Source: Torpedo marmorata (Eukaryota). From it: 64,000 nucleotides of DNA. Shown in pieces: positions 14,949-55,588 of the stretch. Below the pieces are notes generated by a model. That model was not told where the DNA came from, did not search any database, and worked only from the letters and a program-made list of their open reading frames with translations. A program made the position numbers and the translations under genes. Numbering within the stretch: position 1 is the stretch's first letter; every line of letters starts with the position of its first letter. Where the stretch lies: the NCBI GenBank assembly GCA_977017645.1, contig OZ360225.1, positions 154,256,001 to 154,320,000 of the forward strand, read 5' to 3'.

Positions 14949-15264
14949 TAACCAGGATAATGAGGTCCTTTATGACACTGGCTGCCTTCCTGAGGCAGTG
15001 CCTCATGTATAGATGTTTGATAGTATTCAATAATATGCCAAATCTCTATAGACTTCATAGAAAGTAGAGGGGTTGTGTGCTTTCTTCACGTTTGCCTCGA
15101 TGTGTTGGCAGAATCCCTGGAACTTGAAAGTACTAACCCTCTCCACTTCCATCCCATCAATGAGGACTAGTGCTTGATATCTTAGCCTCCCCTTCCTAAA
15201 ATCCGATAACACTCTCCCCTTCTTGGATCTCTCTGTCTCCATCTCGGGAGACAAGCTTTCCACC

Positions 15265-15498
15265 TGTGGTAAACCACTGTGTATGGATTGTGGGCTGGGT
15301 GATAAGTCTGGACATGCCCCTGCTGACTGTCCCGGTGGCTCCTCCCACAGATCCCCTTGATAAAGGCCATTGTGCCACTGCTCCTCCCCCAGTCCAGGAC
15401 AGATCATTAGCACGAATGTAGCTCCATTCTTTTGCTAATAAAAGCCTTTCAGTTCTTGTGTAACTTCGAGTCTTTTGGAGTTATTGATGGGCTCATCA
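15265..15498 (+). repeat. 5' LTR of Gypsy copy 1 (234 bp)
   Basis: TGTGGTAAACC...GCTCATCA; TATA-like motif near 15358; AATAAA at 15437-15442. Confidence 0.95.
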
Positions 15499-15499
15499 A

Positions 15500-15513
15500 T
15501 TTTATTAGCAAAA
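15500..15513 (+). promoter_or_regulatory. Non-tRNA primer-binding-site position, complementary to the element's own LTR
   Basis: TTTTATTAGCAAAA is the exact reverse complement of 15430-15443; no TGG-starting PBS; gag ATG follows at 15522. Confidence 0.75.
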
Positions 15514-15521
15514 TTGTAAAC

Positions 15522-16262
15522 ATGGAGAACATCTTGAGACCAGACAAACTGGACATCGACCCACAAACACCGGAAGCTGGCAATGCCTTCGAACTCTGGC
15601 TAGTCTGTTTTGAATCGTTCCTGGAGGAGATCAAAGTGCAAGAAGACGCCGCAAAACGCAAGGTCCTCCTCTCCAGGGTAAGCCCACGAGTCTACTCTAT
15701 GATCCGAGATCTACAGACTTATGAGGATGCGATGAATACACTTAAAAGACAGTACATACGGCCTGTAAATACCGTGTACGCAAGACACAGGCTAGCGACG
15801 CGGCAGCAGCGGCCCGGGGAGTCGAGCGCGGAGTTCGTACGGGCCCTACAAACACTCGTGCGGGCGTGCGACTGTCGGGGACTGACGGCTGAACAGCATG
15901 CAGAGCTCCTAGTGAGAGACGCTTTCGTTACGGGGACCAGGTCACTGTATGTGCGCCAGCGGCTGCTGGAACAAGCTGACCTTACCTTCCGTTCCGCGAT
16001 CGAACTGGCCGACACGCTGGAGGCCGTGCTACAGAACTCGGATGCTATCCAGGCGCGCGATCTCCAGCAGGCCCCGTGGATGCCGCCGACCCCCCACCAT
16101 GCCAGTGAATCGACCACTGCGGCCATCAGTCGCGAGCCCCAGAAATGCTATTTCTGCGGGCTTGAGAAGCACCCCCAGAAACGTTGCCCGGCCCGAGAAG
16201 CGACCTGCTCCAGCTGCGGGAAGAAAGGCCACTTCGCTAAGGTCTGTCGATCTAAACCGTGA
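15522..16262 (+). pseudogene. gag: Gypsy Gag with two CCHC-type zinc knuckles
   Basis: CYFCGLEKHPQKRC and CSSCGKKGHFAKVC; the terminal TGA is CGA in copy 2, so gag-pol was probably one ORF. Confidence 0.88.
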
Positions 16263-19200
16263 GCGGGATCGAGCAGCGCCGCGTGCGAGACGCGGGGTGG
16301 CCATTTTGTGTGTCGTCACTTCCGTCTCTGCCATCTTACCTACCCGCCGCCGCGGCCAACACGTGCAAGGTATGGGGGCGGCCATCTTGTGTTTCGTCAC
16401 TTCCATCGCCGCCATCTTACCTACCCGCCACCAACACTTGCGAGTCATGGGAGCGGCCATTTTGTTCCACGCCGACGAGTTGACACAGGGTGCCGCTATC
16501 CCGGGACAGCGGGCACTCCATCGCGACGTCGGATCAAGACAGTGACCCAACGTTGGCGTCAGTTACACTCGACCAGAGTGCACCCCACCAACTCGCGAGG
16601 TCGATGATGGACATTCTGGTCGAGGGACACAGGACAAACTGCCTGTTCGACACAGGCAGCACAGAGAGCTTCATCCACCCTGACACGGTACAGCGATGCG
16701 GCCTCACGACACAGCCGGTAAGCCAGAGGGTTGCCATGGCTTCCGGGTCGCACACAACAGACATCCGGGGGAGTTGTGTAGCAACGATAGTGGTACAGGG
16801 CACGGAATACCGGGACTTCACGCTATTGGTCATGCCCCGACTGTGTGCACCTGTACTAATAGAGCTCGACTTCCAGAGTCACCTCCAAAGTGTGACTATG
16901 GAGTATGACGGGCCCCTCCCACCGATTACTGTCAGTAATCACCAATTCCTTCAAAACAGCAAGAATATTTTGTCACCCCACACTACTTGCGGTCTATCCA
17001 CCCTCAAGATCCCGCCCCCATCGCTATTCGCCAACCTGACCCCTGATTGTAAACCTGTGGCAACCAAAAGCAGGAGATATAGCGCAGGGGACAGGGCATT
17101 CATTAAGTCAGAGGTGCAGCGGTTATTTGGGGAAGGGATCATCGAGGCGAGCACAAGTCCCTGGAGGGCCCAGGTGGTTGTCGTCAAGAACGGGGACAAA
17201 AACAGGATGGTGGTAGATTATAGTCAGACCGTCAATAGGTTCACGCAGCTTGACGCGTACCCTCTACCACGCATTGCAGATATGGTAAACCAGATAGCTC
17301 AGTACAAGCTCTTCTCCACCATAGACCTCAAATCTGCCTACCACCAGCTCCCCATTCGCCGGGAGGACTGCCCCTACACCGCCTTCGAGGCGGGCGGCAG
17401 ACTCTATAATTTCCTGCGCGTTCCCTTTGGGGTCACAAATGGGGTATCCGTCTTCCAGAGGGAGATGGACAGGATGGTGGACCAATACAAATTAAAAGCC
17501 ACTTTTCCATACTTAGATAACATCACCATCTGCGGTCACGACCGCCAGGACCACGGTAACAATCTTCGGAAGTTCCTCCAGGCGGCCAAAGCGCTTAACT
17601 TAACCTATAACAAGGATAAGTGCGTGTTCGGAACCACCCGATTCGCTATCCTGGGGTGTGTTGTGGTGAACGGGGTCATCGGCCCCGACCCCGACCGCAT
17701 GCGCCCCCTGTTGGAACTACCGCTTCCCCACACCCTCAGAGCCCTCAAAAGGTGCTTGGGCTTCTTTTCTTACTATGCTCAATGGGTCCCTAATTATGCG
17801 GACAAGGCCCGCCCCCTTTTCAAGTCCACCACTTTTCCCCTTGCAGCGGAGGCACGTGAGGCTTTCAGCCTCATAAAAGGGGATATTGCTAGAGCAGCAT
17901 TGCACGCGGTGGACGAGTCCACTCCCTTCCAAGTAGAGAGTGACGCGTCCAACTTCGCACTGGCTGCTACCCTCAACCAGGCGGGAAGACCAGTGGCGTT
18001 CTTCTACCGTACACTTCAAGGCCCAGAAATTCGGCACTCAGCAGTGGAGAAAGAGGCCCAAGCCATAGTGGAAACTATCAGGCACTGGAGGCACTACCTC
18101 ATCGGAAAAAGGTTTACCCTGCTGACTGACCAACGCTCAGTCACATTCATGTTCAGCAACCAGCAGCGGGGTAAAATCAAAAATGATAAAATCCTGAGGT
18201 GGAGAATCCAACTCTCCACCTACAACTACGATATAATGTACCGGCCCGGGAAGCTCAATGAGCCCTCCGACGCTCTATCCCGGGGGACGTACGCTAGCGC
18301 ACAGATCGACCGGTTATATGCCCTCCACTGTGACCTCTGCCACCCCGGAGTCACCAGGCTTTTTCACTTTGTGAAAGCCCGTAATCTACCGTACTCCCTG
18401 GAAGAGGTCAGGACGATGACCAGCAGCTGCCAAGTCTGCGCAGAGTGCAAACCGCACTTCTACCGTCCTGACAAGGCACAGTTGATAAAAGCAACCCGCC
18501 CATTTGAGCGACTCAGCGTCGACTTTAAGGGCCCCCTTCCCTCCACCGACCACAATGTGTACTTCCTCAACATTATTGATGAGTACTCGCGGTTCCCTTT
18601 CGCCATTCCCTGCATCGATACCACGACCACCTCAGTCATAAAGGCCCTCCGCAAACTCTTCACGTTGTTTGGATACCCCTGCTATATCCATAGCGACCGA
18701 GGGTCCTCATTTATGAGTGACGAGCTGCGACAATATCTGCTGGCCAAGGGTATCGTGACTAGCAGGACCACGAGCTATAACCCACAGGGTAATGGACAAG
18801 TGGAGAGGGAGAACGCCACGGTCTGGAAAGCCACACTCTTAGCCCTCAGGTCTAAGGGATTACCAGTCTCCCGTTGGCAAGAAGTCCTTCCCGAGGCACT
18901 CCACTCTATCCGATCCCTGCTATGTACATCCACCAATGCTACACCTCATGAGAGACTCTTTTCCTTCCCCAGGACGTCGACCACCGGGACTACCCTACCA
19001 GCATGGCTGATGTCCTCAGGGCCAGTGCTGCTCCGGAAACATGTCAGGAGCAATAATTATTATTACACGCGAACTCCCAGTACGCCTACGTGGTTTTTCC
19101 TGATGGGCGGGAAGACACGGTCTCCATCCGGGACCTGGCGCCCGCAGGAGCACTGGAACCCGCCGCTGCCCTCGAACACCCCGTAGTTACTCTTACCCCC

Positions 19201-19410
19201 TTACCTACCATTAAGGACACACAAGAGGCACCACCCAATTCAAACACGACACCACACGCACCAGCATATTCATCTGAGGTTTCGCCAGACGTGCCGGTAC
19301 CCCAGATCAGGCAGGAGGTAGCTCCGCCACCTGCCCCATCACCACCATCACCACAAGTACTGCGCCGATCACAGCAGCGGACTCGACCGCCTGATCGACT
19401 CGATTTGTAA
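16263..19410 (+). pseudogene. pol: Gypsy Pol (protease, RT, RNase H, integrase) with stops and a C-terminal frameshift
   Basis: LFDTGS; IDLKSAYHQ and YLDN; ESDASN and EKEA; HHCC; SVDFKG, HSDRG and VERE; ends RPPDRLDL. Confidence 0.93.
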
Positions 19411-19461
19411 TTTTAATCTCTTGTAAATATTGTTATACACTTCACCCCGCTGGACTCTTTT

Positions 19462-19477
19462 AAAAAGGAGGGGTGAA
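19462..19477 (+). promoter_or_regulatory. Polypurine tract
   Basis: AAAAAGGAGGGGTGAA immediately before the 3' LTR; same motif in copy 2. Confidence 0.85.
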
Positions 19478-19688
19478 TGTGGGCTGGGTGATAAGTCTGG
19501 ACATGCCCCTGCTGACTGTCCCGGTGGCTCCTCCCATAGATCCCCTTGAATAAGGGCCATTGTGCCACTGCTCCTCCCCCAGTCCGGGACAGATCATCAG
19601 CACGAATGTAGCTCCATTCTTTTGCTAATAAAAGCCTTTCAGTTCTTGTGTAACTTCTAGTCTTTTGGAGTTATTAATGGGCTCATCA
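19478..19688 (+). repeat. 3' LTR of Gypsy copy 1 (24-bp deletion at its start)
   Basis: Matches the 5' LTR with about 7 differences; deletion lies between two TGTGG repeats. Confidence 0.93.
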
Positions 19689-20752
19689 CCACCGATATTT
19701 ACTACAAACCCTCCAACTCCCACAACTATCTGGACTACACTTCCTCACACCCTGTCCCCTGCAAGGACTCCATTCCCTTCTCTCAATTTCTCCGCCTCCG
19801 CCACATCTGTTCCCAAGATGAGGTGTTCCACTCCAGATCTTCTGAAATGTCTGCCTTTTTCCACAAACGTGGCTTCCCCTCCACCACCATCAACTCAGCC
19901 CTCACCCGCATCTCCTCCATTTCCCGCTCATCTGCCCTGGCCCCCTCTGCCCCCAGACGCAACAAACATACAATCCCCCTCATCCTCACCTACCACCCAC
20001 CAGCCTCCGCATCCCAAACATTATCCACCGGAATTTCCGGAACTTACTACAGGATTCCACCACCAGACACATTTTTCCTTCTCCTCCCCTCTCGGCCTTC
20101 CGTAGGGACTGCTCCCTCCGCGATTCACTCGTGCACTCATCCCTCCCCATCCATCGCACCCCCTGCACCTTCCCCTGTGCCCGCAGGAGGTGCAACACTT
20201 GCGCCCACACCTCCCCCCTCACCACGGTCCAGGGCCCCAAACAGGCCTTCCAAGTGAAACTACACTTCACTTGTACATCCAGAGAACTTATTTACTGCAT
20301 CTTTGTGGCTTTCTCTACATCGGAGAGACCGGTCGTAGATTGGGAGACCGCTTTGCTGAGCACCTCCTCTCCGTCCGCAACAACAGCGACCTCCCGGTAG
20401 CCAACCATTTCAATTCCGGGTCACACTCCCACACTCACCTGTCTGTCCATGGCCTTATGTACTATCCCACCCAGACTACCCGCAAATTGGAGGAACAACA
20501 TCTCATTTTCCGTCTCGGCACTCTCCAGCCAGATGGCATTAACATTGACTTTTCTGCTTTCCACTAAACCTGCTTGTCATTCCCTTCCCCTCCCCCCTCA
20601 CCTGTCCTTCCTGTTTTTCTCCACCTACCCAGCCATCCCTCCTCCCCCTCTTTGCTGCTGTCCCCTCCCTCCTTTCTCCACCTATCATCTCCTGCCTTTG
20701 CCACCCCCCTTCCCCCCTCACTCTTTTGTTCGGACGCCTGCCGGCATTTTCT

Positions 20753-22209: not shown

Positions 22210-24095
22210 GATTAGTGTAAGTTAAGTTTAAGTTGATTTTCAAATTATATCAGGTACTGTGGGAAGTGTTCTTCCATGAACAGTCTAGCAGGTCAACTCT
22301 AACATTCATACAACCGTAAGAAGTACCAAGGCATAAGCCGTTACAGTGCATCAAGTTACATTAAAAATATCAATTAGTATAAACCAAGGGCAGCACGAGA
22401 GCAATGTTCAGTAGCCTGATGACTGTGGGGAAGAGAATGTTGTTAACTCTGCTGGTGCACGATTTCACTCTCTTGAACCTACCCACCGATGGGAGGAGGG
22501 GGAAGAGAGTGTGTCCAGAGAGTGATGGGTCCTTCAGTATATTGGCTGCTTTTCCTAGGCAGTGCGAGATGTAGATGGAGTCCACGGAAGGGGGGAAGTT
22601 TGTGTTATGTTCTGAGTAGCATTCAGTATGTTCTGTCGCTTTTTCTGAACTTGGGCAGAGCATCACCCATACTACACTGTGATGCATCCAGTATGTATGC
22701 TTTCGATGGAGCACCTGTAGAAATTGTTGAGGAACAAGGGGGATAAACTGAACCTCCTTGGTCTTCTAAGAAATTAGAGGTGTTGATGCACATATTTGAC
22801 CTCGTCAATGTGGTTGGTCCAGTTCAAGTCAATGGAAATGTTAATGTGTGGGAACTTGAAGCTATCTACTGACTCTACTTCATTGCATTGATATGGACAG
22901 GGGAGTGGGTTCTACTCTCTCACCTGAAATCTATGATCAGCCCCTTTTTTTACTCACATTGAGAGAGATGTCGTTCGTTATCTTGGCACCAGTCACTAGA
23001 CCCAATCTCCTTCTTCATTCTGTCTCATTTGATATCTGACCAATAACAGTGGAGTTGTCAAAGAATTTGAGGGTGGAGTTGGACCGGTGTTTGGCTGTAC
23101 AGTCGTGGGTATAGAGGGAGTAATGGTAGAGGGCTGAGTACGGAGATGATTGCAGTCTGTTAGGAAGTCAAGGATCCAGATGCAGTGGGGGTTGCTAAGG
23201 CCAAGATCTTGAAGATTGTGGATGAGTTTGCAGAGTATTATGGCATTGTAGGCAGATCTGTAGTCAATGAACTCTAATCCAAGTGTTCCAGGGGTGAGTG
23301 GAGAGGCAGGGAGATGGCATCTGCTGTGAACCTGTTTGGAGAGCAGGCAAGTTGAAGTGGGTCAAGAGTGGCTGGGAGGCAGGAGAAAATGTGAGCCATG
23401 ACCAGTCTCTCAAAGCACTTCATGATGTTAAATGTCAGCCCCCTTAGTTGGTAGTCTTTTAGGCCCATTATTGTACATTTCTTCGGTACAGGTATGATAG
23501 TGGCCTTCTTGAAACATGGCCTGTTGCAGGGAATGATTGAAGTTATTGATGAATACGCCCAACAGTTGATTTGGGCAGGATCTCAGGACATATCTGTGGT
23601 GGAACGCGGTACTGCGGGGATGTCTGGGCATGTCCGGACATGTCCTCACTGGCTCACCGGGCTAACCTGTAGCCCCTCCCCATTACATCCCCTAATAAAG
23701 GCTGAGAGCCCTAGTCTTCTCCCCTATACCTGCCTTGGAAGTGAGCCAGCAGCATGTAGAGGCATGCTCGAACTTTCTGATCAATAAAGCCTTTGATCAC
23801 TTTCTTCGCGTCTGTGAGTGGTCATTGATCACGCTACAATATCTGTGGGTTTACTCTATGGAAGCTGACTTGACTTTAGCAGCAGGAGCACACAAAGTAG
23901 TTGAGGTGGATGTCACTGCCTCGCGGGCTCCCTGTTCAAAGCAAACATAGAGCACCTCATGGTACCTGGCCTTGCGTGATAGCACACATGCTATATGATG
24001 TGCTCCTGGGACTCAAGCTCTTGGCTTCCCTGATGGCATTGTGAAGACCAGACTTATATTTATTGTAAAGGGCAGGGTCCCTCGATTTTAAATGC
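22210..24095 (-). mobile_element. Old degenerate Rex1-type LINE
   Basis: [21 protein letters not shown] and LDPLQ remnants. Confidence 0.75.
23595..23838 (+). mobile_element. Solo LTR (244 bp), probably distantly related to the Gypsy family
   Basis: TGTGGT...CTACA; 5-bp TSD ATATC (23590-23594, 23839-23843); TAATAAAGGC and AATAAAGCC motifs in the same order as in the Gypsy LTR. Confidence 0.85.
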
Positions 24096-25592: not shown

Positions 25593-28500
25593 TTTTTTTT
25601 TTTTTTTTTTTTAATATTTTATTTAAATTTTTAAATCACACATTACATAATATAATTCTACATATAATTCTTAAAAACTTACATGTGATTACATTTTCTC
25701 CCCCCTCCTTCCCACCCTCCCCTCCCTAACCCCTATATCCCCCTAGTCTAAATTTAAAATAAAATAAAATAATAAAAGAAAAGAAAAGAGAAAAGATAGA
25801 AAAATAGAGAAATAGAGTGAGGAGTCAATAAGCTTAAAAAACTAATATATCTTAGAGGTTATTTCGCCAGCAGATCTGATATCCAGAGAATTTACAGTGT
25901 TAAACCCATAATCCTCATATATGGGCCCCAAATTTTCAAAAAGAAATGATATTTATTTCGTAAATTATAAGTAATTTTCTCTAATGGTATACATGACCGT
26001 AACTCTGCATGCCATCGCTCTAAATTTAAATCAACATCCGATTTCCAAGTAATAGCTATACATTTTTTTGAAACAGCTAATACTATACGTAAAAATTCTA
26101 CTTGATACATATTTAATCTATGTCTAATACTAAATTTTTTAATATCTCCAAATAAAAATAACATAGGATCCATTGCAATTTCAACATTAAAAATTCTTTC
26201 TAAAAAATTCTTAACTTTCAACCAAAAATCTTGAATTTTTGAACATGACCATGTACAATGTGCGAAAGATCCTATTTCAGTTTTACATCTAAAACACATA
26301 TCTGATAACGCTGGATTAAATTTTTTTAATTTTTTAGGTGTCAAATACAATTGATGAAAAAAATTATATTGTACCAATCTATATCTCACATTAATGACTT
26401 TTGTCATACTTAATTTACATAAATCTTTCCAATGATTTTCATCTATATTAACATTCAAATCTAATTCCCATTTCAATCTGGACTTATGCACTCCTACTTT
26501 AGACATCTTTCTTTGGAACAACTTATACATTTGTGAAATAAATTTATTAACATTGACTTTAGTAATTAATAATTCCAATTCATTTTGCCCTGGTGCTGTT
26601 AATTCATTCCCTAATCTTTCAATCAAAAAAGCTTTAACTTGAAAATAAACTAACATTGTATTATCCAATATATTAAATTTTTCTTTTAACCTCTGGAAAG
26701 TAATAAATCTACCTGCTTCAAAACAATCTTTTAAAGTCTTAATTCCCTTTAAAAACCATAACTTAAGTAACTGATTATCCATAGAAAATGGTAAAAGCGG
26801 ATTCTGATATATTGGTGTATTTAAAGAAATTAACCCTTTTTGACCTATCTCTTTGTCTACTTGTGACCAAATTTCCAACAAATGTTTAATAATTGGTGTA
26901 TTTTTCTTTTTAAGTAATAATAATTTAGAATTCCATTTATAAATAATATCTTCTTTATGTATTTCTCCCATATTATTCAATTCTATATTAATCCAAGCAG
27001 AAGATTTATTTAAATCAAAGAATTCATTAATAAATTTTAATTGGGCCACTTTATAATAATACTGAAAATTAGGAAGTTGTAACCCTCCCATCTCATAATT
27101 CCATGTTAATTTATCTATACTTACTCTTGCCAACTTTCCTTTCCATAAAAATTTCCTAATAATAAATTTTAAATCTTTAAAAAATTTATTTGGAATACCA
27201 TAAGGAATCGATTGAAAAAGATATTGAATTCTTGGAAAAACATTCATTTTAATACAATTTACTCTTCCCATCAAAGTTATAGGTAAATCTTTCCAAAGCT
27301 CTAAATCTTTTTTTATTTTCATAAATAAAGGAATCTTGACCACCCAATGGAATTAGAAAGAGCACACAGGATTGGAAGAAGAAATCAGGGCGATCGGAGA
27401 CCGCGTCCAGTTTTGATGAAGTGTCTTAGATATCAAGATAGGGAAAAAATTTTAAAAATGGCAATTCAAAAAGCACGAGAAAGTAGGGGGCCGTTGATGA
27501 TAGAAGGAAATAGAGTTCTTTTCTATCCTGATTTAAGTCCAATGGTGGTCAAGCAACGGAAAGAATTCAACCCTGCAAAGGCTATATTGTGGGAAAAAGG
27601 ATACAAATTTTCGTTTAGGTATCCAGCGGTTCTGAGGATCCAAGATAATGGTGATACGTTTTTGTTATTCAAGAATCCTGATCAGGCTCTTTCTCATGCT
27701 AATGGTCTTCAACGTCGGGCAAGAAGTTTTTTGGATTCGGTTGAACAACAAGATCGGAATAATCAAGCAAGTCGCGGAGATATGGTACCCGGTCCGTCAA
27801 GAGAAAATATCCGAATTCAAGCTGGAGAAGAATTGGAGGATTCAACTGTGTGAAGAGTTGACTGAATGTATATGTTGGACAAATATATATCTGTTGGGGG
27901 GAGGTGGTTTGTGGAAACTTCTTCCGAAGCAATCACCACCTTAGCAGCGAGAGCTGCTTCTCGAGCAACAGAGGGGGGTAGCACTGGGAGTAGAAGACCA
28001 GTGTTTTTTTTTTTATAGGGGGGTTTTCTTTTCTTTTACTTCTATCTTTCATTCTAGTTGAGGAGGAAATGTATTTACGACAGAGTAAGAGGGAAACGCG
28101 GGTGGATTTGATTAACAGGGAACAGTTACTATTTGATTATGGGAGATTCTAAGAGTATAAACTTAGTAAGTATTAATATAAATGGGCTTAATAACCCAAT
28201 TAAGAGAAAACGGACTTTGGCATATATTAAAAAGTTGAAAGTAGACATAGCTTTTTTGCAGGAAACTCATCTGACGGATATTGAACATCAAAAATTGAAA
28301 AGAGACTGGGTAGGACATGTTATAGCGTCGTCATTTAATTCTAAAGCTAGAGGAGTAGCTATTTTAGTAAATAAAAAGTTACCTTTTAAGATACAATCGA
28401 CAGTGATTGATACGGCAGGAAGATATGTTTTGGTATATTGTCAAATTTATTCAGAATTTTGGACTCTTATGAATTTATATGTGTCAAATCCTGATGATGA

Positions 28501-35752: not shown

Positions 35753-38700
35753 TGATGAGCCCATCAATAACTCCAAAAGACTAGAAGTTACACAAGAACT
35801 GAAAGGCTTTTATTAGCAAAAGAATGGAGCTACATTCGTGCTGGTGATCTGTCCCGGACTGGGGGAGGAGTAGTGGCACAATGGCCTTTATTCAGGGGAT
35901 CTGTGGGAGGAGCCACCGGGACAGTCAGCAGGGGCATGTCCAGACCTATCACCCAGCCCACAACCCATACATAGTGGTTTACCACATTCACCCCTCCTTT
36001 TTAAAAGAGTCCAGCGGGGTGAAGGGTATAACAATATTTACAAAGAATTAAAATTACAAATCGAGTCGATCAGGCGGTCGAGTCCATCGCTGCAATCGGC
36101 GCAGTACTTGTGGTGATGGGGCAGGTGGCGGTGCTGCCTCCTGCCTGATCTGTGGTACCGGCACGTCTGGCGATCGCGAAACCTCAGATGAATATGCCGG
36201 TACGTTTGGTGTCGTGTTTGAATTGGGTGGTGCCTCTTGTGTGTCCTTAATGGTAGGTAAGGGGGTAACAGTAACTACGGGGTGTTCGAGGGCAGCGGCG
36301 GGTCCCAGTGCTCCTGCGGGCGCCAGGTCCCGGATGAAGACCGTGTCTTCCCGCCCATCAGGAAAAACCACGTAGGCGTACTGGGGGTTTGCGTGTAATA
36401 ATTGGACCCTCTCGACCATTTATTGCTCCTGACATGTTTCTGGAGCAGCACTGGCCCTGAGGACGTCAGCCATGCTGGTAGGGTAGTCCCGGTGGTCGAC
36501 TTCCTGGGGAAGGAAAAGAGTCTCTCATGAGGTGTAGCATTGGTGGATGTACATAGCAGGGATCGGATGGAGTGGAGTGCCTCGGGAAGGACTTCTTGCC
36601 AGCGGGAGAATGGTAATCCCTTAGACCTGAGGGCTAAGAGTGTGGCTTTCCAGACCGTGGCGTTCTCCCTCTCCACTTGTCCATTACCCCGTGGGTTATA
36701 GCTCGTGGTCCTGCTAGTCGCGATACCCTTGGCCAGCAGGTATTGTCGCAGCTCGTCACTCATAAACGAGGACCCTCGGTCGCTATGGATATAGCAGGGG
36801 TATCCAAACTATGTGAAGAGTTTGCGGAGGGCCTTTATGACTGAGGTGCTAGTGGTATCGGGGCATGGAATGGCAAAAGGGAACCGCGAGTACTCATCAA
36901 TAACGTAGAGGAAGTACACATTACAGTCGGTGGAGGGAAGGGGGCCCTTAAAGTCGACGCTTAGTCGCTCAAATGGGCGGGTTGCTTTTATCAACTGTGC
37001 CTTGTCAGGACGGTAGAAGTGCGGTTTGCACTCCGCGCAGACTTGGCAGCTGCTGGTCATCGTCCTGACCTCTTCCAGGGAGTATGGTAGATTACGGGCT
37101 TTCACAAAGTGAAGAAGCCTGGTGACTCCGGGGTGGCAGAGGTCACAGTGGAGGGCATATAACCGGTCGATCTGTGCGCTAGCGCACGTCCCCCAGGATA
37201 GAGCATCGGAGGGCTCATTGAGCTTCCCGGGCCGGTACATTATATTGTAGTTGTAGGTGGAGAGTTCGATTCTCCACCTCAGGATTTTATCATTTTTGAT
37301 TTTACCCCGCTGCTGGTTGCTGAACATGAATGCGACTGAGCGTTGGTCAGTCAGCAGGGTAAACCTTTTTCTGGCGAGATAGTGCCTCCAGTGCCTGATA
37401 GCTTCCACTATGGCTTGGGCCTCTTTCTCCACCGCCGATTGCCGAATTTCTGGGCCTTGAAGGGTACGGGAGAAGAACGCCACCGGTCTTCCCGCCTGGT
37501 TGAGGGTAGCAGCCAGTGCGAAGTTGGACGCGTCACTCTCTACTTGAAAAGGAGTGGACTCGTCCACCGCGTGCATTGTTGCTCTGGCAATGTCCCCTTT
37601 TATGAGGCTGAAAGCCTCGCGTGCCTCCGTTGCAAGGGGAAAAGTGGTGGACTTGACTAGGGGGCGGGCCTTGTCCGCATAATTAGGGACCCATTGAGCA
37701 TAGTAAGAAAAGAAGCCCAAGCACCTTTTGAGGGCTCTGAGGGCGTGGGGAAGCGGTAGTTCCAACAGGAGGCGCATGCGGTCGGGGTCGGGGCCGATGA
37801 CCCCGTTCTGCACAACACACCCCAGGATAGCGAGTCGGGTGGTTCCGAACACGCACATCCTTGTTATAGGTTAGGTTAAGTGCTTTGGCCGCCTGGAGGA
37901 ACTTCCGAAGATTGTTATCGTGGTCCTGACGGTCGTGACCGCAGATGGTGATGTTATCTAAGTATGGAAAAGTGGCCTTTAATTTGCATTGGTCCACCAT
38001 CCTGTCCATCTCCCTCTGGAAGACGGATACCCCATTTGTGACCCCAAAGGGAACGCGCAGGAAATGATAGAGTCTGCCGTCCGCCTCGAAGGCGGTGTAG
38101 GGGCGGTCTTCCCGGCGAATTGGGAGCTGGTGGTAGGCAGAATTGAGGTCTATGGTGGAGAAAAGCTTATACTGAGCTATCTGGTTCACCATATCTGCAA
38201 TGCGTGTTAGAGGGTACGCGTCTAGCTGTGTGAACCTATTGACGGTCTGACTATAAACTACCACCATCCTGTTTTTGTCCCCGTTCTTGACAACAACCAC
38301 CTGGGCCCTCCAGGGACTTGTGCTCGCCTCGATGATCCCTTCCCCAAGTAACCGCTGCACCTCTGACTTAATGAATGGCCTGTCCCCTGCGCTATATCTC
38401 CTGCTTTTGGTTGCCACAGGTTTACAATCAGGGGTCAGGTTGGCGAATAGCGTTGGGGGCGGGATCTTGAGGGTGGATAGACCGCAAGTAGTATGATGTG
38501 ACAAAATATTTCTGCCGTTTTTAAGAAATTGGTGATTACCGACAGTAATCGGTGGGAGGGGCCCGTCATACTCCATCGTCACACTTTGGAGGTGACTCTG
38601 GAAGTCGAGGCCCAGTAGTACTGGTGCGCACAGTCGGGGCATGACCAATAGCGTGAAGTCCCGGTATTCCGTGTCCTGTACCACTATCGTCGCTACACAA

Positions 38701-40166
38701 CCCCCCCGGATGTTTGTTGTGTGCGACCCGGAAACCATGGCAACCCTCTGGCTTACCGGCTGTGTCGTGAGGCCGCATCGCTGTACCGTGTCAGGGTGGA
38801 TGAAGCTCTCTGTGCTGCCTGTGTCGAACAGGCAGTTTGTCATGTGTCCCTTGACCAGGATGTCCATCATCGACCTCGCGAGTTGGTGGGGTGCACTCTG
38901 GTCGAGTGTAACTGACGCCAACGTTGGGTCGCTGTCTTGATCCGACGGCGCGATGGAGTGCCTGCTGTCCCGCGATAGCGGCACCCTGTGTCGGCTCAAT
39001 GGCGTGGAACAAAATGGCCGCTCCCATGACTCACACGTGTTGGCGGTGGGTAGGTAAGATGGCGGCGACGGAAGTGACGGAACACAAGATGGCCGCCCCC
39101 ATACTTCGCACGTGTTGGCCGCGGGTAGGTAAAATGGCAGAGACGGAAGTGACGACACACAAGATGGCCGCCCCCAAGCCTCGCATGCGGCGCTGGTCGA
39201 TCCCGCTCGCGGTTTTGATCTACAGACCTTAGTGAAGTGGTCTTTCTGCCCGCAGCTGCAGCAGTTCGCTTCTCGGGCCGGGCAACCTTTCAGGGGGTGC
39301 TTCTCAAGCCCGCAGAAATAGCATTTCTCGGACTCGCGGCTGATGGCCGCAGTGGTCGATTCACTGGCATGGTGGGCGACATCCACGGAGCCTGCTGGAG
39401 ATCGCTCGCCTGGATAGCATCCGAGTTCTGTAGCGCACCCTTCAGCGTATCGGCCAGCTCGATCGCGGAATGGAAGGTGACGTCAGCTTGTTCCAGCAGC
39501 CGCTGGTGCACATACACTGACCTGGTCCCCGTAACAAAAGAGTCTCTCACTAGGAGCTCTGCGTGCTGTTTGGCCGTCAGTCCCCGGCAGTCGCACGCCC
39601 GCACAAGTGTTTGTAGGGCCGCTGCTGCCGCGTCACTAGCCTGTGTCTCGCATATACGGTATTCACAGGCCGTATATACTGTCTTTTAAGGGTATTCATC
39701 GCGTCCTCATAAGTCTGCAGATCTCGGATCATAGAGTAGACTCGTGGGCTTACCCTAGAGAGGAGGACCTTGCGTTTTGCGGCGTCTTCTTGCACTTTGA
39801 TCTCCTCCAGGAACGATTCAAAACAGGCTAGCCAGAGTTCGAAGGCATTGCCAGCTTCTGGTGTTTGTGGGTCGAGGTCCAGTTTGTCTGGTCTCAAGAC
39901 ATTCTCCATGTTTACAATTTTGCCAATAAAATTGATTAGCCCATCAATAACTCCAAAAGACTCGAAGTTACACAAGAACTGAAAGGCTTTTATTGGCAAA
40001 AGAATGGAGCTACATTCGTGCTGGTGATCTGTCCCGGACTGGGGGAGGAGTAGTGGCACAATGGCCTTTATTCAGGGGGTCTGTGGGAGGAGCCACTGGG
40101 ACAGTCAGCAGGGGCATGTCCAGACCTATCTCCCAGCCCACAAGCCATACATAGTGGTTTACCACA
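35753..40166 (-). mobile_element. Gypsy LTR retrotransposon copy 2 (4414 bp)
   Basis: LTRs at 39933-40166 (5') and 35753-35986 (3'), 234 bp each with 7 differences; TSD GGTAT (35748-35752, 40167-40171); polypurine tract. Confidence 0.97.
36054..39909 (-). pseudogene. Gag-Pol of Gypsy copy 2, frameshifted
   Basis: ORF pieces at 39577-39909, 39290-39604, 37683-39386, 36809-37858, 36275-36763 and 36054-36419 match copy 1. Confidence 0.92.
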
Positions 40167-44180: not shown

Positions 44181-47100
44181 TTAATTCATACCCATAATTC
44201 TCATATATGGGCTCCAAATTTTCAAAAAGAAATGGTATTTATTACGTAAATTATATGTAATTTTTTCCAATGGTATACAAGAACGTAATTCTGCATGTAA
44301 TCTATCTAAATTCAAATCTAAATCTGATTTCCAAGTAATAGCAATACATTTTTTTGAAACCGCTAAAACAATTCGCAAAAATTCTATTTGATACATATTC
44401 AATCTATTTCTAATACTAAATTTTTTAATATCTCCAAATAAAAATAACATAGGGTCCATTGGAACCGTAATATTAAAAATTCTATCCAAAAAATCTTTAA
44501 ATTTAGACCAAAAGTCTTGAATTTTTGAACATGACCATGTACAGTGTACAAAAGAACCTATTTCATCCTTACATCTAAAACACATATCTGATAATGCCGG
44601 ATTAAATTTCTTTAATTTTTTAGGTGTTAAATATAATTGATGAAAAAAATTATATTGTACTAATCTATACCTAACATTAATAATTTTAGTCATACTCAAT
44701 TTACATAAATCTTTCCAATGTTTTTCATCTATATTAATATTTAAGTCTAATTCCCAACTTAATCTTGATTTATGTAATCCTACCTTAGGCATTTTTCTCT
44801 GAAGTAATTTATACATTTGTGATATAAATTTGTTAACATTTCCATTAGTGATTAATAATTCTAATCCATCCTGTCTTGGAGCTATTAATTGATTCCCCAA
44901 TTTCTCAACTAAAAATCCTCTAACCTGATAATAAGCCAAAATTGTATTATCCAATATTCCAAATTTTTCTTTCAACCTGGAAAATGTAACAAATCTTCCA
45001 GCCTCAAAACAATCTTTAATCTTCTTAATTCCTTTTTGAAACCATAATTTTAAAAATTGATTATCAATAGAAAAAGGTAATAATAAATTCTGATACAGTG
45101 GCATATTTGGAGATAATAACCCTTTTCGTCCTATCTCATTGTCTAACTGAGTCCAAATTTCCAACAAATGTTTAATAATCGGTGAATTTTTCTTTTTAAC
45201 TAATAATAATTTAGAATTCCATTTATAAATAATATCTTCTTTATATCTCTCCCCTATATTATTCAATTCTATATTAATCCAAGCAGTAGATTTAGTTAAA
45301 TCAAAAAATTCATTAATAAATTTTAATTGAGCTGCCTTGTAATAATATAAAAAATTGGGGAGTTGTAATCCACCCATCTCGTAATTCCAAGTTAATCTAT
45401 CCATACTTACTCTCGCTAATTTTCCCTTCCATAAAAATTTCCTAATAATAATTTTTAAATCTTTAAAAAATTTTGAGGAATTCCAAAAGGAATAGATTGA
45501 AAAAGGTATTGAACTCTTGGAAAAATATTCATTTTAATACAATTCACTCTTCCCATTAAAGTTATAGGTAAATCTTTCCAATTCTCCAAATCTTTCTTTA
45601 TTTTCTGAAATAAAGGTATATAATTTAATTTATATAAATTTTCCAATTTTGTATCTACTTTAACTCCCAAATATTTAATTCCTTCTTTAGCCTATTTAAA
45701 TCCTGTGACTTCTTTGCATTTAGTATAATCTCCTTGAGATAAAGCCATTATTTCACTCTTATCTGAATTTATTTTATAACCAGATATCTCACCATACTCC
45801 CTCAATATCCTAGCTAATTGTTGAAGCGATGCAATAGATTTCATCATATATATTAATACATCATCTGCAAATAAACTAATTTTATGCTCTTCTGTACCTA
45901 CTTTAATCCCATTTATATTAATATCTTTCCTAATCATTTCAGCCAACGGTTCTATTGCCAATACAAATAAAGCAGGTGATAAAGGGCATCCTTGTCTTGT
46001 TGACCTCATCAAGGGGAATTTAGATGATATCTGACCATTTGTAATTACTCTAGCTGTAGGTTCTTTATATATAGTTTTAATCCAATTTATAAAAGTATTC
46101 CCAAATCCATATTTCTCTAAAACCTTAAATAAAAAATTCCATTCTAATCTATCAAATGCTTTTTCTGCGTCTAATGTTATCACCAACGGCAAATCTTGTT
46201 TCCTTTTTTGCAAATTAATTAAACTTATTAATCTTGCTATATTATCCTTCGAATATCTATTTTTAATAAATCCTGCTTGATCTGAATGTATTAAAATCGG
46301 TAAATACTTAGCTAATCTATTTGTCCAAATTTTTGCCATTAATTTATAATCTACATTCAATAATGATATAGGTCTGTATGACTCAGTTTTTAATACATCT
46401 CTATCTTTCTTTGGTATAACTAATAATAGCATTCAAAAAAGTTTTCGGTAATAAATGAGTTTCCTTAATTTGAGTCAATATTTCCATATATATAGGTATC
46501 AATAAATCTTTAAACTCCTTATAAAACTCTATCGGAAATCCATCATCACCAGGAGATTTACCACTTTTCAATGTCGATAAAGCTTCAACTACTTCTCTCA
46601 TTGTAATAGGTAAATCTAACATATCTCTATTAAAATTATTTAATTTAGGTAATGTAATTTTGGATAAAAATCTATTAATTTTTGTATCATCATGATCAAT
46701 CTGAGAGGTATATAAATTCTGATAATATTCTCTGAAAGATTCATTTATTTCCTGAGGTTTATAAGTTATTTCACCAGTACTTTTTTTATAGCATTTATAG
46801 TTTTAGAAACTTGTTCTTTTTTTAATTGCCATGCTAGAACTTTATGTGCTCTTTCTCCTAATTCATAATATCTTTGTTTCGTTCTACCAATTAATTTTTC
46901 TATTTTTCGAGTTTGTAATATATTATAATGCAATTTTTTCCTAATTAAACGTTGTCTCCTAAAAATTGTTTTATTTCTTTGAAAATCTTTCTCCATAAAT
47001 TCAATCTCCCTTTCCAATTTTCCTTCTTCTTTCAAATAATCTTTTCTAATTTTTGCCGAAAAACTTATTATCAAACCTCTTAAATAAGCTTTTAAAGATT

Positions 47101-54600: not shown

Positions 54601-55588
54601 GGCCTCAGGAGCTGTAACACTTGCGCCCACACCTCCTCCCTCACCACGGTCTGGGGCCCTAAACTGGCCTTTCAAGTGAAACAACACTTCACTTGTACAT
54701 CCACAGGACTTATTTACTGCATCTGGTGCTCCCTTTGTGGCCTTCTCTACATCAGAGACCGGTCGTAGATTGGGAGATCGCTTCACTCAGCAACTCTACT
54801 CCGTCTGCAACAACAGCGACCTCCCAGTAGCCAACCATTTCAATTCTGAGTCACACTCCCACACTCACATGTCTGTCCATGGCCTTATGTACTATCCCAC
54901 CCTGACCACCTGCAAATTGGAGGAACAACATCTTATTTTCCGTCTGGGCACTCTCCAACCAGATGGCCTTAACATTGACTTCTCTGCTTTCTGCTAAACT
55001 TGCTCGCCTTCTTTCCCCTCCCCCTTTCCAGTCTTTCCAGTTCTCCCCTCCCTTCCCCCTTACCCACCCAGCCATCCCTCCTCCCCCTGATCGTTGCTGT
55101 CCCCTCCCTCCCTTCTCCACCTATCATCTCCTGCCTTTACCACACCCACTCCCCCCCTATCTTTTGTTCGGACGCCTGCCGGCTGATGCACCATCAATAA
55201 CTCCAAAAGACTAGAAGTTATATAGAAATGATAGGCTTTTATTAACATCAGAATGGAGGCACATCCATGCTGGTCGTCTGTCCTGGACTGAGGAGGGAGC
55301 TGTGGCACAGTCGCCTTTTTATTCAGGGGTCTGTGGGAGGAGCCACAGGCACAGTCAGCAAGGGGCGTGTCCAGACGAAGTTCAGCAAGCACTAACACTG
55401 CCACAACATATATACAGTGGTTTACCACACCGGCATTCTCTCATTCCTTGATGAAGGGCTCAAGCCTGAAACGTCGGTTATATGTTTTTACCTTTGCTAC
55501 ATAAAGGACACTGTTTGACCTGCTGAGCTTCTCCAGCATTTTGTGTTTTTACTTCAACCACGGTGTCTACAGATTTTCGTGATGTACT
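54601..55588 (+). mobile_element. Penelope-like element 3' part with a hammerhead at 55442-55482, interrupted by a solo LTR
   Basis: ETGRRLGDRF...KLEEQHLIFRLGTLQPDG; 14-bp TSD TCACATTTAATTGT (54587-54600, 55589-55602). Confidence 0.92.
55184..55429 (-). mobile_element. Solo LTR (246 bp), sister subfamily of the Gypsy copies
   Basis: TGTGGTAAACCAC...GCATCA; 5-bp TSD CCGGC (55179-55183, 55430-55434). Confidence 0.93.

Follow-up and report, generated by a model that had tools for sequence, protein, structure and literature searches.

An animal Ty3/Gypsy clade without a chromodomain that very probably primes reverse transcription with its own RNA

For Tf1 it is demonstrated that the element self-primes its reverse transcription; the same has been inferred mainly for its chromovirus relatives and for one plant copia lineage. 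For Tf1 and Tf2 of S. pombe, for Tj1 and Tosmo, and for the Tf1/sushi chromoviruses, the accessible parts of the literature describe a primer-binding site (PBS) that can pair with the R region of the element itself, priming that needs no tRNA, and a reverse transcriptase (RT) that cleaves the self-primer (PMC5341516, PMC10085805, PMC4600332). According to the available text of PMC11042837, Tf1 retains a copy of the primer at the 3' end of its cDNA. Two plant lineages, TAR of Ty1/copia (Houba, Osr-1) and Tcn1, are predicted from sequence to self-prime in the accessible part of PMC6317226. TAR shares with the element described here self-priming outside of the chromoviruses; Tcn1 is itself a chromovirus, and for neither of the two does this part of the source report an overlap with the poly(A) signal. 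The metazoan Gypsy clades Mag (A/B/C), Cigr-1, MolGy1-16 and Barthez likewise have no chromodomain and live in similar hosts. Self-priming is not reported for them in the accessible portions of the sources, and that of PMC6238403 has no mention of a PBS. In the open-access literature, with subscription papers, Repbase and GyDB outside of the scope, we found no account of self-priming in a non-chromodomain animal Gypsy clade; an earlier mention of the self-priming of our clade elsewhere is possible, though we rather doubt it.

Here we describe such a clade, starting from a stretch of 64,000 nucleotides of Torpedo marmorata DNA (contig OZ360225.1), which we call the window and in which all positions are counted from the first letter. 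Judged from the sequences, we hold it to be very probable that these elements self-prime in some form, using their own RNA rather than a tRNA. That the priming is Tf1-like, occurs in cis in a separate metazoan Ty3/Gypsy clade and uses an internal primer with a capped 5' tail still attached appears probable to us. As in Tf1/sushi elements, the PBS is complementary to the element's own 5' LTR and not to a tRNA. Unlike in Tf1/sushi, where the primer consists of the first bases of the RNA, the primer of our clade likely carries a 5' tail of 38-50 nt. It would furthermore end at the poly(A) hexamer, with about 18 nt left for strand transfer. Also different are the missing chromodomain and the RT motif, which is mostly Y[LMI]DN (99 of the 120 listed relatives; YLDN in most host copies). 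Because no chromodomain was found, we do not file the clade in the Tf1/sushi group despite its Tf1-like working. An origin of self-priming independent from that group is likely.

The element that we studied most closely, copy 1, spans 15265-19688 on the forward strand and is a Ty3/Gypsy LTR retrotransposon, with TG..CA LTRs, a 5-bp target duplication (CCACC at 15260-15264 and 19689-19693), the domain order PR-RT-RH-IN and a polypurine tract (PPT, 19462-19473). Its 5' LTR (15265-15498, family A) matches both copy 2 and its own 3' LTR (19478-19688), which has a short deletion at its 5' end. The pol frame (16484-19186) contains the RT motif YLDN and is disrupted near the integrase tail; the best match of the RT to a solved structure is Ty3 RT. 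A scan at E 0.1 gave no chromodomain in this pol, in its tail or in 6 relatives, and PF00385 occurs in 0 of the 120 listed relatives. Rfam has no match in 15250-15600. Two CCHC knuckles in gag are a feature of the Mag lineage, and the translation of the stop-terminated gag ORF of copy 1 (15522-16262, forward strand) contains two. This gag also has a weak PNMA match under the Pfam cut-off; PNMA was traced to Barthez, as the accessible text of PMC3670739 states. The LTRs of the relatives resemble in size and ends the Mag C model (mean 174 nt) given in the available part of PMC3601003, and the motifs of the clade were not found in the accessible supplements of PMC6238403 and PMC8556966. Copy 2 (35753-40166, reverse strand; 5' LTR 39933-40166, 3' LTR 35753-35986) is inserted within a LINE RT fragment. 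Copy 1 is enclosed by another retroelement with broken frames (15000-15259 and 19694-20567), which by the look of these frames we take to be Penelope-like. The window also holds two related ORFs of about 450-490 aa, 25892-27352 and 44181-45533 (-), with no Pfam match.

The initial annotation had claimed that copy 1 lacks a tRNA-type PBS and carries in its place a 14-mer complementary to its own LTR. This proved exact. The LTR segment 15430-15443 (arm 1) reads TTTTGCTAATAAAA, and the PBS at 15500-15513 (arm 2) reads TTTTATTAGCAAAA, its perfect reverse complement. The LTR ends at 15498 and is followed by one spacer base (15499), no TGG-type PBS is present, and the gag ATG stands at 15522. Arm 1 terminates in AATAAAA, with the hexamer AATAAA at 15437-15442, and it would form the 3' part of the self-primer with a predicted cut at 15443/15444. 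In shuffled LTRs the longest complement had a mean of 5.4 bp and a maximum of 12, with 10 bp or more in 0.46%, so that the complementarity of PBS and LTR is not due to chance. Genome-wide, family A comprises 3,245 exact LTR-PBS-leader junctions. Upstream of the helix lies a TATA-like element as the putative promoter (15360-15366), followed after 22 nt by an Inr-like heptamer (15389-15395); this spacing is equal in families A, B and C, and the Inr-like site is found 38-50 nt above the helix.

The pairing changes together with the subfamily. In copy 2 the covarying site is indeed C in arm 1 (39988-40001) and G in the PBS (39918-39931), both on the reverse strand, and the 3' LTR has T there, all as first described. 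The C:G pair is a true subfamily trait (A2), since it is present in 30 of 30 copy-2-like loci; the 30 best family-A loci, which were picked for similarity and include the window copy, carry T:A in the helix without exception. In the first 40 of the 3,245 junctions, the base in the 3' LTR agrees with the PBS in all 21 detectable cases (8 C/G, 13 T/A) and that in the 5' LTR in 33 of 37 scorable ones. Because of this agreement elsewhere, together with an LTR-LTR divergence after insertion of 1-8% in the junction set compared, the T in the 3' LTR of copy 2 is most likely a later mutation. From two solo LTRs in the window, the PBS of two further families had been predicted. For family B (solo LTR 55184-55429, reverse strand, duplication GCCGG) 11 of 30 loci consist of a 5' LTR and then gag, and the predicted TTTTATTAACATCA follows exactly in 7 and with one change in 4. 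For family C (solo LTR 23595-23838, forward strand, duplication ATATC) a complement follows the 5' LTR as expected, with three T in place of the predicted four: 11 of 30 loci are 5' LTRs, with TTTATTGATCAGAA in 10 and one change in 1. The remaining 19 of 30 loci in each of the two sets are solo and 3' LTRs.

The same arrangement extends to distant relatives with 45-65% RT identity. We fetched 87 related loci, of which 37 had a usable leader, and in 31 of these 37 scorable relatives the LTR end is followed by one base and a complement of 10-19 bp. The 6 misses comprise two short contigs and one wrong ATG, two helices that have decayed, and a single locus with no helix. Relatives at 56-65% identity come from corals and a damselfly, another from a nematode, and many from further contigs; the nearest proteins are those of rays and sharks. 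When the LTR ends were set by LTR-LTR alignment, which left out 66 of the 87 loci for want of a usable LTR pair and another 4 truncated at contig ends, 12 of 14 distinct junctions gave a complement of 10-17 bp. The 2 misses (L103, L136) are overrun LTR ends, and the leader survey gives them helices of 16 and 13 bp. A cross-family control had a mean complement of 5.8 bp, close to the shuffle mean given above, and a PBS beginning with TGG, as tRNA-primed LTR elements have it to pair with the CCA end of the tRNA, was seen in 0 of the 14 distinct junctions. We tabulated 19 helices, choosing rows that have a helix. Among these selected rows, 2-4 kinds of Watson-Crick pair occur at each position in a run of 8, and the covariation check on relatives that had been proposed at the outset gave a positive answer for the inner helix positions. 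The common pattern is CA, one base and TTT(T)A on the PBS side, with a one-base spacer in 19 of 19, and an arm end TAAA(A), after which 18 have ACC or GCC. The helix is present in both YxDN and YxDD branches. These two motifs switch several times on a tree of clade members only, made by a quick search. A change of the second aspartate is damaging in other RTs, and the persistence of YxDN in a high-copy clade is unexpected. No relatives were confirmed in viral contigs. Seven clade members (L171-L177) lie within contigs of bacterial metagenome-assembled genomes, where they are most likely host contamination.

Should the LTR arm serve as primer, replication that fails is expected to leave fold-back junctions, in which copying goes on past LTR end, spacer and PBS into the LTR sequence upstream of the arm. 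We found about 150 such junctions genome-wide, in which copying continued through the predicted primer. Exact family-A fold-backs number 16 (control 0), compared with the 3,245 normal junctions. The reciprocal junction, which would be expected equally often if chromosomes switched at the inverted repeat, was found exactly only twice (16 vs 2, P 0.0013), with a few more variant forms of it among the loci. Allowing up to two mismatches gave 74 A-type matches (control 1), of which 4 are normal elements; the 70 loci inspected for these matches include at least one case of two abutting LTRs. For family C, with the solo LTR of the window as ruler, we obtained 85 fold-backs (84 loci, control 0). Seven loci are complete palindromes away from the PPT, and three of them have a perfect 5-bp target duplication and three a 4-of-5 match, which argues that they integrated as such. 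In 8 loci a PBS follows the 3' LTR, as expected from copying of a primer that was not removed. The 16 to 2 asymmetry, the duplications at the palindromes and the PBS after the 3' LTR together point to reverse transcription and integrase. Most fold-backs extend to the LTR start, so that a DNA-level (snap-back) step is needed as well. Two rearrangements recur in several subfamilies (L233, L285, L287, L304, L311, L315; L245, L289, L321), one with the antisense last 30 nt of U5 inserted directly after the arm, the other snapping back where the antisense U5 copy ends; both look like RT switching at short microhomology. In family C a variant with a lengthened PBS-side copy has the same breakpoint in about seven loci (L372, L376, L393, L394, L400, L402, L433), which indicates that at least one fold-back product was itself amplified.

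The endpoints of these fossils allow the likely cut and start to be placed. Of the antisense U5 copies, 11 of 38 in family C (expected 3.0, P 1e-4) and 5 of 23 in family A (expected 1.7, P 0.026) have their end within -4..+2 of the predicted cut, the test of the cut site being post hoc. In family C only 6 antisense U5 stops fall into the 46 nt beyond the cut window. On the primer side, 26 stops lie in the 46 nt of the predicted tail and 7 in the 67 nt upstream for family C, and 17 in 36 nt against 6 in 62 nt for family A. The stops form a hump at -5..+9 of the Inr-like site (10/23 A, 12/33 C). Six independent A-type events stop at 15389-15392 (6/26, hand-curated; element positions 125-128), a cluster with P 6e-4 at a fixed position and 0.028 after scanning, so that this is the likely transcription start and 5' end of the primer. 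For family C we had stated beforehand that stops should fall within 3 nt of the Inr A; this held in part, for 5 of 33 events with one indel artefact among them. Three independent family C stops share one base near the Inr, and another hot spot lies at position 216 (4 events). Strict endpoint extension halts falsely at U3 subfamily indels and permissive extension overruns, and the ranges were limited accordingly; the counts retain some alignment artefacts. The A right stops, for instance, contain 1 normal element and another that is nearly so.

We propose the following mechanism. The RNA would begin at the Inr-like site, which lies about 38 nt above the helix in family A and 50 nt above it in family C, and the segment ending in AATAAA(A) would pair in cis with the PBS. 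The element's RNase H may then cut directly after the hexamer arm, by analogy to Tf1, which would give a capped primer of about 52-63 nt with its last 14 nt paired. Extension by RT would produce a strong-stop DNA of about 51-56 nt; in copy 1 the loop 15444-15498, for which a U5 hairpin is predicted, would together with the spacer template 56 nt. Transfer of the strong-stop DNA would rely on only the 17-19 nt between cut and poly(A) site, in copy 1 the first nucleotides of this loop. The unpaired 5' tail would usually be removed, probably by RNase H once complementary minus-strand DNA exists. Plus-strand copying of the primer would rewrite the PBS, by which the arms stay matched, and where the tail survives, RT could copy into it and leave the fold-back fossils. 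The tests described here give good support to several points raised by the initial annotation: self-priming, covariation across the clade, the missing chromodomain, and a primer that lies inside the RNA some 40 nt below its start.

Four other explanations have to be weighed. The RNA could begin at the first base of the arm, with a 14-nt primer that has no tail and long fold-backs arising by DNA snap-back only. This is the known arrangement of Tf1 and Tj1, it avoids a problem with a plus-strand flap, and most fold-backs reach the LTR start anyway. Against it speak the TATA-like/Inr-like pair 38-50 nt upstream with equal spacing in three families, and the stops, which in both families hump at the Inr-like site and thin out beyond; we consider it unlikely. 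A primer acting in trans is less likely still. Here short RNAs of 5' or solo LTRs, running from the start to the poly(A) site, would anneal to the PBS of the full-length RNA and be trimmed to the helix. Solo and 3' LTRs, which could supply them, are abundant (19 of the 30 loci both in family B and in family C), and at least one natural transduced copy apparently used the AATAAA of the LTR for polyadenylation. However, trans priming would give the template no end at the arm, where the antisense U5 copies pile up, and folding predicts a complete cis helix.

That a host tRNA fragment primes, in particular the 5' half of tRNA-Ile(AAT), and that the helix only hides the poly(A) signal, is strongly disfavoured. 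The anticodon loop of the host tRNA-Ile(AAT) does pair over 9 nt with the PBS of families A and A2, half-tRNA-Ile priming is reported for Bianca copia elements in the accessible part of PMC6317226, and HIV-1 represses its own 5' AAUAAA in a hairpin according to the available text of PMC2645353. For the Bianca type, a PBS match to the tRNA half would be expected across the family; here it is limited to 9 nt in A and A2, and the own LTR fits better. Indeed, the own-LTR duplex is longer and more stable than that with tRNA-Ile, the only tRNA compared, in 14 of 14 junctions (13-17 vs 5-11 pairs; 2 of the 14 were fold-back copies). Moreover, the PBS of every family changes along with its own LTR, and it is the LTR arm, not a tRNA, that the fossils link to the U5 copy. 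Finally, the inverted repeat could be maintained by chromosomal template switching or gene conversion and have no role in priming. A fold-back junction alone would equally result from a DNA template switch at any inverted repeat, the breakpoint is not placeable inside the 14-bp repeat, and a few loop inversions are present (L239, L436). Yet the junctions are asymmetric, the palindromes bear integrase-type duplications, the one-base offset from the LTR end is fixed in 19 of 19 junctions and no alternative primer site is present, all of which makes this explanation hardly credible.

If self-priming from the element's own RNA holds true, a second large animal clade shows that it arose again with a different design: an internal, tailed primer that is cut at the poly(A) signal, and strand transfer over a very short homology. 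Thousands of copies of the clade are present in the Torpedo marmorata genome, and relatives are known from corals, an insect and a nematode. Regulation by tRNA fragments would not reach such elements, and annotation software that depends on a tRNA PBS would overlook them. What is added here is a genome-wide mapping of the likely cut and start from rearranged DNA copies. The fold-back fossils yield exact coordinates that can be tested, and RT errors collected genome-wide could map priming in other uncultured elements.

Hiding of the 5' AATAAA in the helix could have a plausible second role, that of blocking premature 5' polyadenylation, for which we see slightly less than an even chance. In the predicted fold of the 5' leader, a central helix with a short extension and a U5 hairpin (z -2.3) to be set beside the three-duplex 'pretzel' leader of the Tf1/sushi group, the hexamer is fully paired (unpaired probability of 0.03 or less). 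It is free in the fold of the 3' LTR (0.80-0.97), where the poly(A) site likely lies at about 19649-19652, and partly free before the PBS is transcribed. A canonical hexamer lies within the helix in 15 of 19 junctions; the other 4 have GTTAAA or TTTAAA, and 2 of these have a canonical hexamer in the loop. The HIV-1 polyA hairpin is comparable in that an RNA helix covers AAUAAA and represses 5' polyadenylation (available text of PMC2645353). That hairpin is local, is present at both ends and belongs to a tRNA-primed virus, whereas here the partner strand is the PBS, which exists at the 5' end only, and the repressing function is a predicted one. With a primer that stops at the signal, no more than about 18 nt remain for strand transfer, and such a price hints at some advantage. 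A 5' poly(A) signal could be suppressed by its nearness to the promoter, with no need of a helix. Since copying of the primer into the PBS yields covariation automatically, the covariation argues for priming and not for selection on a helix that hides the signal. The complete picture we put forward tentatively and with some doubt: a large undescribed animal Ty3/Gypsy clade that self-primes independently of Tf1/sushi with a capped primer of 50-60 nt cut after the hexamer, in which the priming helix at the same time shuts off the 5' poly(A) signal and perhaps covers the gag start, the RT works mostly with YxDN, and fossils map cut and start. In the predicted fold, tail positions 15422-15427 pair with the gag start codon region (15522-15527); this complement, not clearly kept in family C, is kept in family B.

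The polyadenylation block is plausible from folding and from one natural A-tailed copy. At this locus (L266) a LINE-like 3' end is followed by an LTR piece and by ten A that begin 17 nt after AATAAA, with a flanking duplication of 14 bp. We read it as a 3' transduction that probably used the poly(A) signal of the LTR, and the position of its A tail falls into the segment corresponding to the loop of copy 1. One pattern search for A tails gave 7 distinct places, only 2 of them in the LTR of the family. A second search gave 14, of which 4 were kept, L266 alone having a flanking duplication. The other 10 were rejected as antisense LINE 3' ends inserted in the LTR. These ten LINE-like ends lie antisense in U5 T-runs (L248, L249, L251, L253-L255, L259, L261-L263); they were selected by the search pattern and carry no information on preference. 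The poly(A) pattern was also matched by a processed pseudogene with an A tail (L211), by eye a ubiquitin-ribosomal protein fusion.
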